Virus record (IMG/VR): IMGVR_UViG_2541047692_000008
Coordinates: 1-54,354 of that record
DNA from: a virus
Lineage: Duplodnaviria; Heunggongvirae; Uroviricota; Caudoviricetes
Direction: 5' to 3' (one strand)
DNA length: 54,354 nt
Part shown: positions 30,961 to 43,261 of the stretch, one piece after another
How positions within the stretch are numbered: position 1 is the stretch's first letter
Layout of the letters: each line of letters begins with the position of its first letter
Translations under genes and position numbers: made by a program
Notes under the pieces: generated by a model
Database searches by the model: none
What the model was told of the DNA's origin: nothing
What the model saw: the letters and a program-made list of their open reading frames with translations, nothing else

Positions 30961-30990
30961 TTCTATTTTTCGCGTAGCAACGCGTAAACA
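30961..30990. promoter_or_regulatory. Conserved 30-mer (copy 1) upstream of portal gene
   Basis: ttctatttttcgcgtagcaacgcgtaaaca; 26/30 identical to 43232-43261. Confidence 0.5.
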
Positions 30991-31010
30991 TGCATTCAGG
31001 AGTAAACATT

Positions 31011-32384
31011 ATGCCATCCAATTTAGAATTGGCGGTTAATGCTGCCTTGTCACAACGTCAGGCGGCCTTTGCACGCTATGCCGCCGCGCATCCTTTCTCA
31101 ATGGGTATTGATGCAAAGCGTGATGCTGCGTGGAGTGAATACGGATTCAAAGAAGAAATCACCTATGCCGATTTATACAAACTGTATCGTCGCGGTGGTA
31201 TCGCTCACGGTGCTATTGAGAAGATCATCACTACGTGCTGGCGCACCAGGCCAACGCTGATCGAAGGTACGGAAGACGAGAAAGCAAAAAAGGAAACGCC
31301 GTGGGAAAGAGAAATCAAAAAACGATTTGATAATCGTTTCTGGCGCGTCATAGCTGAATGCGATCGCCGCCGCCTCATTGGTCGTTATGCTGGCCTGTTA
31401 ATTCACGTCAGGGATAACCAGCCGTGGGATCAGCCAGTGACGAAAGGTGTAGGCATTGCCAAATTTACCCCTGTATGGGCTGGTGCTCTTACACCGAAGG
31501 ACTTCGAAGAAGATCCGGAAAGTGAAAGCTATGGCCTGCCGACATGGTGGGAATACAAGGAGCGCATTAACAGTAAGACCATAGCAAGAAAGATACATCC
31601 AGATCGCATATTTATCTTCGGTGATTATTCTGATGATGCCATCGCTTTCCTTGAGCCGTCCTATAACGCTTTTGTATCGCTGGAGAAAGTGGAAGGCGGT
31701 AGCGGTGAATCCTTTCTGAAAAACGCAGCGCGTCAACTAGCTATCTCATTCGACAAAGAGATTGATTTCCGTTCCCTGGCTGCGACATACGGTTGCGACG
31801 TTACAGAGCTGCGCGAAAAATTCAATGAAGCGGCAGAGGATATAAACAAAGGGAATGATGTGATGATGGCATTACAGGGAGCTACCGTTAGCCCGCTGGT
31901 TACTGCCGTGGCGGATCCATCAGCTACCTATGACGTCAACCTGCAAACCGCCGCCGCTGGTATCGACATTCCAACGCGTATCCTGGTTGGGAATCAGCAG
32001 GGTGAGCGTGCATCAACCGAAGACCTCCGCTACTTCAATAACCGCTGTATGACCCGCCGGGAGGAAATAGGAGGCGAGCTTGAGGAACTATTCCGCAAGA
32101 TGGCAGATCTCCGCCTTATCAGTATGCCAGTCGACGTGTCGGTACTGTGGGACGACCTTAACGCCATGACGAAAGCCGAGCTACTCGACGCGGCATACAA
32201 AATGGCGCAAATCAATCAGGCATGTCTCGCCACAGGTGAACAAGTATTCGACGGTGACGAGATCCGCGAGGCTGCCGGGTATGAAGGGCCAACGCAGGAA
32301 GTAGAACTGGACGACGAGGAAAACGACAATGAAGGTGAAGAAAATAATCAGGCGAATACCTCCAGCCGCGATAATGCCATCTAA
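31011..32384 (+). CDS. Portal protein (by position and size)
   Basis: Track ORF 30990..32384; ATG at 31011 preceded by caggagtaaacatt RBS; acidic C-terminus; follows terminase large subunit. Confidence 0.6.
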   Translation: MPSNLELAVNAALSQRQAAFARYAAAHPFSMGIDAKRDAAWSEYGFKEEITYADLYKLYRRGGIAHGAIEKIITTCWRTRPTLIEGTEDEKAKKETPWEREIKKRFDNRFWRVIAECDRRRLIGRYAGLLIHVRDNQPWDQPVTKGVGIAKFTPVWAGALTPKDFEEDPESESYGLPTWWEYKERINSKTIARKIHPDRIFIFGDYSDDAIAFLEPSYNAFVSLEKVEGGSGESFLKNAARQLAISFDKEIDFRSLAATYGCDVTELREKFNEAAEDINKGNDVMMALQGATVSPLVTAVADPSATYDVNLQTAAAGIDIPTRILVGNQQGERASTEDLRYFNNRCMTRREEIGGELEELFRKMADLRLISMPVDVSVLWDDLNAMTKAELLDAAYKMAQINQACLATGEQVFDGDEIREAAGYEGPTQEVELDDEENDNEGEENNQANTSSRDNAI

Positions 32385-33270
32385 CACCGAAGACCCGACC
32401 ATGACAGGGAGGTTGAGGTCTGGCGCTATTAAGCGTTTCAAATCCTGCCTGAAAAAAGTAGCCGATCCATATATCGCCATACTGGACAAAATACAATATA
32501 GCCTGGCTGTTAATAAGAAATATACCTTCCAGATTTACATGGATGAATTGCACGACATGCTGGAGGACGCCAGCGACATGATTGATGAGATATTCGAGCT
32601 AACCGACCCGGAAAGTTTTTGGTTCTGGCAGGAATACGTGAAGGTCGCGTATCTGCGAGGCACGGCACAGGAATACGCCAACCTTGCTAACCAGTCTGTC
32701 ACGTACTCAAGCGTTTATCCCGATGTATCTGCCGTGTTATCCAGTACAACTTACCGAACACGCCTTGCTCTGGTCCGTACCCGTGTATTTGAGGAAATGC
32801 GCGGGCTGACCGCACAGATCAAAAAGGATATGGCCCGGCGATTAACTGAAGGCATGGCCCGTGGTTTAAACCCACTGGAAATAGCGCGCACATTGAATCA
32901 GGAGACGCAATTACCGCTATACAGGTGTAAACGTATTGCTCGAACTGAAATATGCACAGCGTTACGCACAGCGCGTATGGATGAGGCAGAAGCGGCGACA
33001 GAAGAATTTAATCTGCGCACTATGCAAATGCATATTTCGGCATTATCACCGACTACCAGGCTATCGCACGCGCAGCGGCACGGTAAAACATACACCATAG
33101 ATGAGCAGCGCGAATGGTGGAGTAGATCCCCTAATTCAATTAACTGCAAATGTAGCACGATTACCGTATTAGTTGACGAAGACGGTAACATATTAAACGA
33201 ACGAATATTAGATCGGGCGCAAGAAAACTATAAAGTTGCGCACGCTAAATATGGCGAAGATTGGGAGTAA
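32374..33270 (+). CDS. Head morphogenesis protein (Mu F / SPP1 gp7-like)
   Basis: ...IARTEICTALRTARMDEAEAA...HISALSPTTRLSHAQRHG... pattern of Mu F-family minor head proteins; start uncertain (32374 or 32401). Confidence 0.6.
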   Translation: MPSNTEDPTMTGRLRSGAIKRFKSCLKKVADPYIAILDKIQYSLAVNKKYTFQIYMDELHDMLEDASDMIDEIFELTDPESFWFWQEYVKVAYLRGTAQEYANLANQSVTYSSVYPDVSAVLSSTTYRTRLALVRTRVFEEMRGLTAQIKKDMARRLTEGMARGLNPLEIARTLNQETQLPLYRCKRIARTEICTALRTARMDEAEAATEEFNLRTMQMHISALSPTTRLSHAQRHGKTYTIDEQREWWSRSPNSINCKCSTITVLVDEDGNILNERILDRAQENYKVAHAKYGEDWE

Positions 33271-33275
33271 AAACC

Positions 33276-34547
33276 GTGAGTAAAGAACTGATTCAGGTTA
33301 ATACCAAATTAACCGCTAATACCATACGCCGGGAAACTTATAACGGACGCGAGCACATTGTTGTGCCATCATATACGCTGCCATTCAATATCGTTATGAA
33401 TCGTGAATATTACCCGGAAGCTGAAATTATCGCTAATTACCAGTCACTGGAGGGGACACTCGCCCCGCTGGGTCATCCTACCGTTGACGGTAAATTTGTT
33501 TCCGCATTTAGCCCGGAAGGATTGAACACCGGGTTTTGTGGAGCGTGGAACAGAAACGTTGAATTACGCGGCAATCGTGTTTATGTGGAAAAATGGGTGG
33601 ATATTGAAACAGCCAGCCATTCAGAACAGGGGCGTGAATTATTAACCCGACTGGAAGCACTGGAGAAAGGAGAAAGCAAAGATCCTATCTGGTCGTCCGT
33701 CGCTGTATATCGTCAGCGTATGCCAGCTACTGAAGAGATGAAAGCCCAGGGCGCTGACCATGTAGTAAAAATTATGTCGATCGACCATGACGCTATTTTG
33801 CTGCATGAGCCGCCAGCCGCATCACCTGAACAGGGTGTAGGGTTGATGGTTAATACTGACCAGGCGAAACCGTTAATGGCGGTGGCAATGAAAGAAAACA
33901 GTTACCGTACGCTTGAGAAACAATTAACCGACGCGGCGCGTGAATTATTTCCTGATGCCGATTACGTGTATGTGGTGGACTTCACTGATAAAGAAGTGAC
34001 GATCGCCACTAATACAGAAAGTGCTCAAGTTTGCGCATATGAAAAACAGGTTGATAAAATTATTCTCAATAATGGCGAGCTTGCAACCAACGAGGAAAGT
34101 AAATCCTGGTTTACGCAGTTCGCTGAACACCTTTCTAATCTTTTCTCCCTGAATGAAAAAATTAAGGCCAATAAATCGGAGGACGATCCCATGCCTTTGA
34201 CCAAAGAAGAACGCGCCGAACTGGTAAAAGAAATTAACGAAGGCTTATCCGCCAATATCGCTAATGCAGTAGCAGAGGCATTAAAACCAGTACAGGCAAG
34301 CGTTGAAGAATTACAGACCAATCAGAAAGCGATTAAAGAAGAGATCGCAGCAAACGCAAATAAAGAAGAAGCAGAAAAACGCGCCGCAGTAGCAAAAGTA
34401 CACGGCGAAATTGTTGCTAACGCATTAAGTGGTGAAGCGTTAGACGCAATGTTTAAATCCCTGGGTAAAGCAGCACCAATGGCAGCAAACTCAGCCGCTG
34501 GTGGAAATAAACCTGCCACCCCTGACATTAACAACTATTTCGCATAA
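33276..34547 (+). CDS. Head scaffolding or prohead-processing protein candidate
   Basis: Track ORF starts TTG 33261; GTG at 33276 follows gggag RBS; C-terminal coiled-coil rich in A/E/K; position between Mu F-like gene and capsid genes. Confidence 0.45.
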   Translation: MSKELIQVNTKLTANTIRRETYNGREHIVVPSYTLPFNIVMNREYYPEAEIIANYQSLEGTLAPLGHPTVDGKFVSAFSPEGLNTGFCGAWNRNVELRGNRVYVEKWVDIETASHSEQGRELLTRLEALEKGESKDPIWSSVAVYRQRMPATEEMKAQGADHVVKIMSIDHDAILLHEPPAASPEQGVGLMVNTDQAKPLMAVAMKENSYRTLEKQLTDAARELFPDADYVYVVDFTDKEVTIATNTESAQVCAYEKQVDKIILNNGELATNEESKSWFTQFAEHLSNLFSLNEKIKANKSEDDPMPLTKEERAELVKEINEGLSANIANAVAEALKPVQASVEELQTNQKAIKEEIAANANKEEAEKRAAVAKVHGEIVANALSGEALDAMFKSLGKAAPMAANSAAGGNKPATPDINNYFA

Positions 34548-42696: not shown

Positions 42697-42951
42697 TCAC
42701 TTATGAGTGCCTTTCACGCCACATAACTTGTTATAGGCATGGTGCTCAACAATTAACCAAACCTTCAAATCTTCGCTAAACAGCCTCCAATCAAGATTGA
42801 TATCCATTTTGTATCCGTAACCGTCGCGTAACTTTTTGGGGTAAACTTCTTTTCTCAGAAAGGCTTTAAGTAATTCCTTACCTTTCTTGATGATCCGGTC
42901 CTGTGCGTTTTTCTGTGCTTTCAGATTTCTGTCAATCGCTACCAGTTTCAT
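42697..42951 (-). CDS. Hypothetical protein (84 aa), possible RelE/YafQ-like toxin
   Basis: C-terminus ...DWRLFSEDLKVWLIVEHHAYNKLCGVKGTHK loosely resembles YafQ/RelE C-terminal pattern; second gene of a two-gene minus-strand cassette. Confidence 0.4.
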   Translation of the reverse strand: MKLVAIDRNLKAQKNAQDRIIKKGKELLKAFLRKEVYPKKLRDGYGYKMDINLDWRLFSEDLKVWLIVEHHAYNKLCGVKGTHK

Positions 42952-42968
42952 AACTCACCCCATCATCC

Positions 42969-43124
42969 TTAGTTAAGTGCCTTCAGGAAGAAGTCCCGGT
43001 ATTCATCTTCTTTCGCATTCATCATGAATTGACCGTATTTGAATGCGTCGTCGAAACCCTTAACGATTGCTATTTCCACTTGTTCGAATGCGTTATTTAG
43101 CATTACTACTACATAGCGTTTCAT
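42969..43124 (-). CDS. Small protein (51 aa), upstream partner of 42697..42951
   Basis: Hand-found; strong RBS aaggagg; MKRYVVVMLNNAFEQVEIAIVKGFDDAFKYGQFMMNAKEDEYRDFFLKALN. Confidence 0.4.
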   Translation of the reverse strand: MKRYVVVMLNNAFEQVEIAIVKGFDDAFKYGQFMMNAKEDEYRDFFLKALN

Positions 43125-43231
43125 TTTGGGCCTCCTTCGTTGGTACTACTTTCTTCTTGCTTTCTATATACATCTTGTTGCGTGCTATGTGAAGCCATTT
43201 TGTAAACTAGCTATAATCATTGTGACAATGA

Positions 43232-43261
43232 TCTTATTTTTCGCGTAGAAGCGCGTAAAGA
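43232..43261. promoter_or_regulatory. Conserved 30-mer (copy 2) upstream of tail gene M, with TATAAT nearby
   Basis: tcttatttttcgcgtagaagcgcgtaaaga; TATAAT at 43212-43217; flanked by ccattttgtaaac and tatacaaaatgtaac. Confidence 0.5.

Follow-up and report, generated by a model that had tools for sequence, protein, structure and literature searches.

A conserved leader element at the portal and tail M gene starts of an mEp021-like coliphage

Introduction

Two late genes of a coliphage, one encoding the portal and the other minor tail protein M, are preceded by closely similar stretches of DNA, which raises the question of whether this likeness is fortuitous, inherited or functional. The window considered here, the whole stretch of 54,354 nucleotides that was analysed, is that of an mEp021-like (mEpimmI) phage. 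The original prediction took a 30-mer upstream of both genes to be a shared late-gene control element, in the form of an activator site, an internal promoter or a translational operator. The first part of this proposal stands, in that the repeat is a real, selected cis-element of control type and not the product of chance; the promoter reading does not survive, and an activator site is unlikely.

The element and its two copies

The 30-mers lie on the + strand at 30961–30990 and 43232–43261, as predicted, with an identity of 25/30 rather than the 26/30 first given. Copy 1 starts 28 nt after the stop codon of terL (30932) and ends 20 nt before the ATG (31011) of the portal gene (31011–32384, + strand), whose Shine-Dalgarno (SD) sequence is AGGAG. 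Copy 2 ends 30 nt before the ATG (43292) of gene M (43292–43645, + strand), so that both distances fall within the 20–40 bp originally proposed. Each copy is situated in untranslated leader and has the orientation of the late genes, and at both sites the SD sequence is outside the element. The portal copy belongs to the late operon controlled by Q and is some 5 kb away from the pR'/tR'-like region.

The central part of the repeat is a 23-nt core, TTTTTCGCGTAGNANCGCGTAAA, which has two matches in the window with up to three mismatches and none in 100 shuffles. It takes the form TTTTTCGCGTAGCAACGCGTAAA at 30966–30988 (+ strand), in the terL–portal intercistronic leader, and TTTTTCGCGTAGAAGCGCGTAAA at 43237–43259 (+ strand), in the leader of gene M. 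Written as TTTTTCGCGTAG-NNN-CGCGTAAA, the core is found exactly twice in the window and never in shuffled sequence. The direct repeat CGCGTA-N4-CGCGTA is present in both copies, although as a loose pattern it is not rare by itself (8 matches against 5.0 expected when two mismatches are allowed).

The homology exceeds the 30-mer and takes in some 55 nt of leader at each site, from 30955 to 31007 (+ strand; nhmmer E 1.2e-15, covariance model 59.8 bits) and from 43224 to 43279 (+ strand; nhmmer E 1.4e-17, covariance model 70.2 bits). Further copies had been thought worth seeking. The window contains exactly two (nhmmer E 1e-17, covariance model E 1e-15), the next match having an E value of about 0.7–0.9; nhmmer, the covariance model and pattern scans detected no third or diverged copy in the window, and its early/immunity region has none. 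Other short repeats also occur at gene starts in the window, as identical 20-mers at 18953 and 20954.

Conservation among related phages

The M and portal loci of related phages were retrieved via neighbouring proteins. The element is present at both sites in every close relative examined (30/30 M loci and 49/49 portal loci) and absent from both in more distant relatives belonging to four other genera, many of them with M immediately after the tape-measure gene. Across 40 distinct portal leaders the core is invariant except for a 3-nt spacer, and at M it ranks lowest in diversity among the 24-nt windows of the intergenic region and among 140 noncoding windows. Constraint at the portal gene extends over the whole leader to the ATG: pi is 0.007–0.010 there, compared with 0.148 further upstream and 0.162 for third-codon positions. 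Whether at the portal gene or at M, diversity in the core is roughly one-tenth of that in the flanks and at third-codon positions, and we conclude therefore that the element is under selection. Nearly all variation falls in the 3 nt that separate two CGCGTAR 7-mers, which are themselves conserved base by base; a 1-nt deletion that falls in this spacer and in the loop of the hairpin described below (L113/L114), and a 1-nt loss in the preceding run of T/U residues (the L042 group) are tolerated. Spacer types are occasionally exchanged between the sites, 5 portal loci carrying AAG and 2 M loci CAA.

Beyond this group, a scan of IMG/VR with relaxed flanks returned only chance matches in GC-rich coding sequence of other phage groups. 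The same scan gave one uninterpretable match at a contig end (L267). A metagenome scan in which the stem was left free yielded AT-rich noise and 12 true relatives, all with canonical stems and none with a new stem variant.

The extent of the homology invites a reading in which the core has no function of its own: one leader would have been copied from the other, in either direction, when a reverse-strand cassette split M from the tape-measure gene, and their likeness would have been kept by ancestry and occasional gene conversion. Such an origin would account for homology over the whole 55-nt leader, for the lack of both copies in distant relatives, many of which have M directly after the tape-measure gene, and for the spacer swaps, which suggest conversion; the 20-mers at 18953 and 20954 are further short gene-start repeats in the same window. 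It does not explain why, at the portal gene and M alike, the core varies far less than flanks and third-codon positions, and conversion within a genome cannot account for conservation across about 45 genomes with diverged flanks. A mere relic is thus improbable.

Signals and genes around the M copy

Copy 2 does lie just downstream of a TATAAT box (43212–43217, + strand), with the element 19 nt later. The box is invariant in 37 distinct M leaders whilst its neighbouring bases vary, and it appears to be the -10 of a putative internal M promoter with a weak -35, GTGAAG, which was missed by a strict scan because this -35 matches at only 3/6 positions. Since the element at M is downstream of the invariant TATAAT, it would be transcribed as 5' leader, at roughly +13 to +36. 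This position, beyond the -10 and inside the transcribed leader, makes an activator site unlikely. Upstream of the box, GCCATTTTGTAAACT (43194–43208, + strand) is a member of a recurring promoter-associated motif. Just past the box is an operator-like TGTGA-N6-TCTTA (43221–43236, + strand; TCTCA in most relatives), with conserved half-sites and a variable spacer, which belongs to a TGTGA-N6-TCTCA motif family enriched in the window; in 22/24 distinct leaders its centre is 20 bp from that of the element core. The portal copy has no conserved -10, promoter or neighbouring operator.

That the element is itself a promoter, serving portal and M on the + strand, or the cassette or an antisense RNA on the - strand, is highly improbable. 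Direct reading of the - strand at the M copy does give TTTACG-17 nt-TAAGAT, with 4/6 matches per hexamer, but the scan calls nothing at either copy and the - strand -10 is not conserved, most relatives having TGAGAA or TGAGAT and the portal copy TAGAAA. The + strand has no hexamer pair with workable spacing, and no sigma-70 site, with hexamers 16–18 nt apart and A2 and T6 in the -10, is called at either copy on either strand. The only promoter-like TATAAT is that of the M copy, upstream of the element, and the internal promoter of the original prediction is accordingly rejected as an identity for the repeat.

Copy 2 is also flanked by a divergent cassette (42697–43124, - strand) which encodes a 51-aa protein and an 84-aa ParE-like toxin (Pfam PF24732, E 9e-12) and is separated from the tape-measure gene by a bidirectional terminator-like hairpin (42615–42637). 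The mEpimmI late region has several interruptions by reverse-strand moron cassettes. The 51-aa protein is predicted to form one long helix (pLDDT 88.6, single sequence), and its homologues, all at least 76% identical, occur only in this phage group. A ribbon-helix-helix antitoxin operator was rejected as the identity of the element, given this single predicted helix, the lack of independent contexts for the protein and a portal copy that has no cassette. Nor does the element mark a small gene: a single + strand ORF, of 40 aa with a TTG start, overlaps copy 2, and it stops at the TAG of the element and has no counterpart at copy 1.

In one relative (L077) an HNH gene is inserted between the leader and M; the element stays promoter-proximal there and M has no second copy. 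The element is therefore not tied to the ribosome-binding site of M; a translational or RNA operator, as once suggested, is a possible reading nonetheless. The HNH gene of mEp515 was considered as a viable example of such an insertion and set aside, as it is on the other strand, inside the cassette, and is not comparable.

Stem-loop or DNA-binding site

Taken together we favour, tentatively and at less than even odds, a reading in which the core is a sequence-specifically recognised stem-loop in late mRNA leaders. The two copies would be paralogous mRNA leaders of about 55 nt, within which the conserved 23–24-nt core would act as a small stem-loop once transcribed into late + strand mRNA; the structure would consist of a CGCGU/RCGCG stem, an AGNN tetraloop, a bulged U and a U5/A3 extension. 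All bases save those of the 3-nt spacer are conserved, and for this reason a trans-acting factor, be it a protein, a ribonuclease or the ribosome, probably recognises this stem-loop sequence-specifically, and the structure is probably not merely passive. The element would thereby set the processing, stability or translation of two gene blocks, the portal with the head genes and M with the tail-tip genes. The duplication, the conservation across the lineage, the selection, the position within transcribed leaders and the fit to a + strand hairpin are shown, whereas the choice of RNA rather than DNA as the active form and the function of the element are what we infer.

Both copies fold as the same hairpin, a 5-bp GC stem closed by a tetraloop, at -6.1 and -7.7 kcal/mol. 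This hairpin is weak, and its z-scores of -1.7 and -1.6 do not set it apart from shuffled sequences. Across 38 distinct sequences 93.6% of cells pair, a figure to be read against shuffled controls which reach the observed values in 492–500 of 500 trials, and RNAalifold finds no compensatory pairs in the core, where variation is too low to decide for or against pairing. The stem changes which do occur, C6>U and C16>U, give G.U pairs, and the third spacer base is A or G, either of which pairs with U10. Every natural variant is compatible with the + strand hairpin, and many of the pairs that the variants form are G.U, for which the opposite strand would have C.A mismatches; as there are only two independent stem substitutions, this choice of strand is statistically weak. 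At the portal gene, constraint that runs through the whole leader to the ATG is typical of constraint at the level of mRNA. Further points in favour of RNA are the late-gene orientation of both copies in untranslated leader, the toleration of 1-nt losses in the loop and U-run, and the case of L077, where the element keeps its promoter-proximal place ahead of the inserted HNH gene.

Strict conservation of stem and flanks, with variation only in the 3 nt between the 7-mers, would fit a protein-binding site in DNA equally well. In this close rival to the stem-loop, which we rate as possible but somewhat unlikely, a sequence-specific phage or host protein would bind the two direct CGCGTAR 7-mers, 10 bp apart, or an imperfect palindrome, TCGCG-N6-CGCGT, and would modulate transcription through both leaders by repression of the M promoter or as a roadblock. 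The base-by-base conservation of each 7-mer and the lack of RNA covariation favour such an operator, as does the arrangement at M, where the 16-bp core is exactly 20 bp from the TGTGA-N6-TCTCA just past the -10 in 22/24 distinct leaders and shares the 5+6+5 geometry of that enriched motif. However, the portal copy has no conserved promoter and no operator beside it that could serve as a target, 1-bp shifts in spacing are tolerated in the spacer and T-run, and the element is nowhere in the early/immunity region, which is where one would look for operators of the known regulators. A candidate binding protein did not emerge either: the 51-aa protein next to copy 2 is predicted as a single helix rather than a ribbon-helix-helix fold and has no homologues outside this phage group.

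Among operators of known type, lambda CII sites have the form TTGC-N6-TTGC and straddle the promoter -35, the second repeat beginning about 16 nt from the -10. The element shares with them two direct repeats, a 10-bp period and a lambda-like circuit; unlike them, it has no conserved -10 of that geometry, on either strand, at both copies. None of RfaH ops, PurR, Fur, Fis, IHF, CpxR and the CII-type geometry fits the element beyond 4–5 bases, in comparisons made by eye against consensus sequences, which serve as rejected leads rather than formal tests. In a direct comparison with the RfaH ops/JUMPStart consensus, GGCGGTAGnnTG in the non-template strand of a leader, only GTAG is in common and the flanking positions mismatch.

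Comparison with known elements

Read as RNA, the core invites comparison with the stabiliser hairpins of polycistronic mRNAs, such as the ompA 5' stem-loop, REP elements and T7 RNase III sites, which set the stability or expression of single segments and are usually much more stable, with conserved structure. Like them it would be a stem-loop of untranslated RNA, placed between cistrons or close to a 5' end, and it differs from them in that its hairpin is weak and its primary sequence is what is conserved. REP elements have a role in mRNA turnover (PMC3479197). Across the whole window Rfam gives 0 matches at gathering thresholds. An intrinsic terminator is not called at either copy, where the T-run precedes the hairpin on both strands.

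The SAS repeats of Cluster K mycobacteriophages are 13-mers with a Shine-Dalgarno core, 3–7 bp from the start codon, in about 10–19 copies per genome and in the non-structural half (PMC3203893). A role in translation has been suspected for SAS and extended SAS (ESAS), the inverted repeats of which lack support for RNA pairing (PMC3203893). Like these, the element is short, confined to one phage group and maintained among relatives, and it precedes gene starts in a single orientation. It is nevertheless not a repeat of this type, as it has two copies only, 20 and 30 nt from the ATG in the structural region, with the SD sequence outside it.

Nearer to hand are nutL, nutR1 and nutR2 of mEp021, which like the element are small hairpins with a GC stem and purine-rich loop in a transcribed leader, in the same phage (PMC11893012). 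This raises the possibility of a boxB-like hairpin to which the N-like Gp17, or a different antitermination or elongation factor, binds so as to act upon late transcription complexes or repress translation. The GC stem and purine-rich loop are those of the phage's own boxB hairpins (nutL CGCU-GCGA-AGCG, nutR2 CGCU-GAAA-UGCG, nutR1 GCCGCU-GGAA-GUGCGGC), and in one natural variant (L093/L094) the loop is the GGAA of nutR1. However, the usual loops are AGCA and AGAA (hexaloops UAGCAA and UAGAAG), which are not GNRA and stand apart from the GCGA, GAAA and GGAA of the phage itself. Matches to boxA (CGCTCTTTA-like) are found only at 9049 (-), 10277 (+) and 17707 (+), beside the known nut hairpins, and there is none near 30966 or 43237. 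The element is moreover in the late operon, under Q control, whereas nut sites are just downstream of early promoters. A lambda-type nut site or boxB is thus rejected, and the broader boxB-like reading is very doubtful.

Nor does the element follow Q (PF03589). The Q proteins of the window and mEp021 differ at residues about 117–150, a zinc-finger segment, and their late-promoter regions are of different type, yet the element is identical in the two; this argues against a Q-binding element or qut site and also against the boxB-like reading. The window shows no enrichment of the shared 9-mer GCGTAAACA.

Implications

The portal gene is the first gene of the head module and M the first of the tail-tip module. 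It is attractive to consider that the element is the operator of a dedicated trans-acting regulator which gates the two together, although we regard this as unlikely. The candidate would be a protein that binds RNA or DNA, or else Gp17, recognising a boxB-like hairpin that lacks boxA, and, were it real, it would represent a second layer of late control beneath Q antitermination in a lambda-like circuit. Taken alone the finding is modest and specific to the group. Being short and in two copies, the element is an easy target for mutagenesis and, if it binds a factor, a possible compact regulatory part. The mEpimmI phages are recently defined temperate coliphages, which reportedly occur in human faecal samples as often as lambdoid phages do, and only their repressor, N-like antiterminator and nut sites have been studied (PMC11893012). 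A selected cis-element at the starts of the head and tail-tip modules would be a first hint of the tuning of late-region expression in mEpimmI.

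Two copies of a leader element

The two 30-mers lie on the + strand at 30961-30990 and 43232-43261, as predicted, and agree at 25 positions on recount rather than the claimed 26. Copy 1 starts 28 nt past the terL stop (30932); 20 nt separate its end from the portal ATG at 31011, which has AGGAG as its SD. Copy 2 ends 30 nt before the ATG of gene M at 43292. Late-gene starts thus follow within the 20-40 bp first reported, and the TATAAT near copy 2 is present at 43212-43217. Profile alignment carries the homology to about 55 nt per site (30955-31007 and 43224-43279); on this alignment the duplicated unit is the whole leader, more than a 30-mer. 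That the similarity exceeds chance was borne out: the 23-nt core, TTTTTCGCGTAG-NNN-CGCGTAAA, has exactly two matches in the window at up to three mismatches and none in 100 shuffles. CGCGTA-N4-CGCGTA can indeed be read as a direct repeat within the core, but the loose pattern itself is not rare (8 matches versus 5.0 expected in the window with two mismatches allowed), and it is therefore the complete core that carries the signal. The proposed search of the window for further copies, using the core pattern together with a profile HMM and covariance model that incorporate every known version of the element, returned the same two and no third.

Another case of gene-start sequence duplication is found in the window. 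Beyond the NinG/Q region, three small genes each have their SD and start codon within a repeated 20-mer, GTGGGGTGAGCAATGAAAAA, identical at 18953-18972 and 20954-20973 and 80% identical in the third copy at 21159-21178. A reverse-strand ORF (6633-7213) also contains a unit of about 200 nt repeated three times in tandem at 77-78% identity, and the central tail fibre (J-like) gene has periodic repeats of 108 nt (49852-50696).

Distribution and conservation

The window spans roughly the full genome of an mEp021-like (mEpimmI) temperate coliphage, and MagusPhagus, mEp021, mEp044 and others are 87-90% identical to it. A motif scan of IMG/VR gave 85 loci. Each lay on an mEpimmI-like contig of about 54 kb, and each preceded either portal or M, with no other context represented. 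Since such a scan presupposes the motif, loci were also retrieved via the neighbouring proteins. The original prediction had held that absence from relatives with the same genes would count against the element: it is present at every mEpimmI locus fetched (30/30 via M, 49/49 via portal) and absent at both sites in nine distant relatives from Atlantibacter, Enterobacter, Pseudocitrobacter and Pseudescherichia, with portal about 58% and M about 67% identical. This pattern indicates that the element is a derived feature of one lineage. In many of the nine, M immediately follows the tape-measure gene, and M homologues about 70% identical in other phages have unrelated upstream sequence. The M-context region occurs in only 35 of 5,426 complete E. 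coli genomes. In the distant relatives (L218-L226) another short motif, AAACGGAC(C), recurs about 10-20 nt before the portal start codon.

Among 24 distinct M leaders, the 24-nt core has a nucleotide diversity of 0.044, which falls to 0.019 when the 3-nt spacer is left out; the corresponding figures are 0.184 for upstream sequence, 0.155 for downstream sequence and 0.239 for third-codon positions, and the core ranks lowest among 140 noncoding 24-nt windows. For 40 distinct portal leaders the core value is 0.010 (0.002 without spacer), and the leader from core to ATG is equally constrained (0.007), compared with 0.148 upstream and 0.162 at third-codon positions. Judged by these values, shared ancestry alone cannot account for the low core diversity, which makes a functionless relic unlikely. 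Conservation at the level of primary sequence implies specific recognition by some factor.

Surroundings of the two copies

A pR'/tR'-like unit just upstream of the holin gene (promoter-like site 25968-25995, terminator 26051-26069) and a strong terminator after the capsid gene make a single Q-antiterminated late transcript most likely. In this unit (25968-26075; 11760-11900 in L001, the mEp021 record), the terminator and the conserved AGATTAAAAT are common to all relatives, whilst the sequence upstream is of two types, window-type and mEp021-type. These two phages differ in promoter type and also in the zinc-finger segment of Q (residues ~117-150). The element is identical in phages differing in this segment and in the late-promoter region, and was rejected as a Q-binding element.

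PMC11893012 describes for the mEpimmI group a CI-like repressor, the N-like antiterminator Gp17, three early nut sites and a Q-like late regulator; in the portion of that paper available to us no mention of the element was found. The probable nutL, nutR1 and nutR2, at 9030-9057(-), 10277-10320(+) and 17706-17745(+), each consist of a boxA (GCTCTTTAA or GCTCATTAA) and, after it, a GC-stem hairpin whose loop is of GNRA type (GCGA, GGAA, GAAA). The element is without boxA and its loops are non-GNRA, so that it was rejected as a nut site; a boxB-like or antitermination role is improbable. No Rfam family matched, and a small ORF was ruled out as its explanation.

Neither a terminator nor a sigma-70 promoter was called at either copy. 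The element itself as an internal promoter, one option of the original prediction, is thereby dismissed, and a promoter is the remotest of the readings weighed. Near the portal copy, about two-thirds of relatives have a -10-like TAAAAT that overlaps the terL stop, but the window and others have TAAAAA, so a promoter there is not conserved. The same portal leader is joined by two unrelated terL 3' ends, so that the element stands at the left boundary of a conserved portal module. In the mEp021 GenBank record (L001 16491-16530) the portal start region reads ATTATATTGCGTTTATTAGAT, with the usual ATG missing, where all other relatives have ATTATGCCATCCAATTTAGAA. The difference may be genuine or stem from a sequencing error.

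At M, TATAAT is invariant in 37 distinct leaders whilst adjacent bases vary. GCCATTTTGTAAACT stands before it, and 3 nt beyond it begins TGTGA-N6-TCTCA (TCTTA in the window), with conserved half-sites and a variable spacer; both belong to motif families enriched in the window's regulatory regions. With TATAAT upstream as the putative -10, the M copy lies within the transcribed leader, at about +13 to +36. In L077, a prophage, the M leader is separated from M by an HNH homing-endonuclease gene (reverse complement, 8720-9200) that has been inserted exactly at their junction; the element stays promoter-proximal and no second copy is found at M, which ties it to the transcript leader rather than to the ribosome-binding site of M. 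HNH genes lie within the reverse cassette in mEp515 and between genes I and J in mEp021.

The first of these families, (G)CCATTTTG, has 22 matches in the window at up to one mismatch, versus 7.0 expected. Its sites include 5160(-), 9148(-), 9991(-), 17622(-), 17678(+), 24131(-)/24148(+), 40199(-)/40216(+), 43195(+), 44788(+), 44850(+) and 52241(-), and -10-like hexamers, among them TATAAA, TATAAG, TAAACT, TATACT and G-TATGAT, come immediately after them. They often form back-to-back divergent pairs 16 nt apart where reverse-strand cassettes meet forward late genes, and look like a family of internal promoters, of which we found no mention in the same portion of PMC11893012. The CRP-consensus-like palindrome TGTGA-N6-TCACA has seven sites at up to one mismatch (1.4 expected; 0/100 shuffles reach seven), at 9181, 12444, 14051, 17631, 24101 (perfect), 44869 and 52220, with weaker ones at 40231 and 43221. 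It usually occupies about +1 to +17 of the hexamers, an operator-like position, and could be a host CRP site or a phage repressor site.

The tail region is interrupted three times by reverse-strand cassettes, and the tail operon as a whole by four moron cassettes on that strand (39096-40140, 42697-43124, 43999-44706, 51838-52140). Among the products of the four are a VasI-like protein associated with T6SS, a ParE-like toxin paired with a 51-aa protein, and a KilAC/ANT-domain protein. The cassette adjoining copy 2 encodes the toxin and its partner, which is restricted to this phage group and predicted to be a single helix; a ribbon-helix-helix antitoxin operator was rejected.

Recognition as RNA or DNA

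The core can be read as direct 7-mers with a 10-bp period (CGCGTAG-NNN-CGCGTAA), as an imperfect palindrome, TCGCG-N6-CGCGT, flanked by T5 and A3, or as a + strand RNA hairpin with a 5-bp stem (CGCGU/RCGCG), AGNN tetraloop, bulged U and U-run/A-run extension. Natural spacers are CAA, AAG, AAT, AGG, AAA, CTA and CGA. Swapped types, AAG at portal in five loci (L003, L023, L175, L213, L320) and CAA at M in two (L055, L108), suggest short-tract gene conversion between copies 12.3 kb apart. Other variants are A11>G, T5>C, a 1-nt loop deletion and a T-run shorter by 1 nt; C6>T and C16>T each yield G.U on the + strand. Among 38 distinct sequences 93.6% of cells are paired, with shuffles as good in 492-500 of 500, and compensatory changes in the core are absent. 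At -6.1 and -7.7 kcal/mol, the two folds show no significant gain in stability over shuffles. The hairpin is compatible with the data but falls short of demonstration.

A DNA site is a possible reading, nearly as good as an RNA stem-loop. Variation confined to 3 nt between two 7-mers and the lack of covariation favour it, as does the phasing of the element with the neighbouring operator-like site at M, which lies 20 bp centre to centre from the 16-bp core in 22 of 24 distinct leaders. At portal, which offers no obvious target for regulation, the DNA reading is weaker. A role in the mRNA is the sole one which makes sense at both places, because both copies stand in sense orientation in untranslated leaders, 20-30 nt before a start codon, because constraint on the portal leader reaches as far as the ATG, and because all tolerated changes, including indels in loop and U-run, fit the + strand hairpin. 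Our tentative preference is for a stem-loop in the late mRNA leaders which some factor would recognise sequence-specifically, and which may thereby set how the gene blocks headed by portal and by M are processed or translated, or how stable their mRNA is.

The closest described analogues are the start-associated sequences (SAS) and extended SAS (ESAS) of Cluster K mycobacteriophages (PMC3203893). These too are group-specific motifs at gene starts, with function unassigned and no RNA-pairing support, but they differ in copy number and distance from the start codon and contain the SD. Of the shared late-gene control element originally proposed, a cis-element at two late-gene starts stands, shorn of its promoter option. 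It is real, lineage-specific and previously undescribed, of a familiar general kind, and readily tested by experiment.
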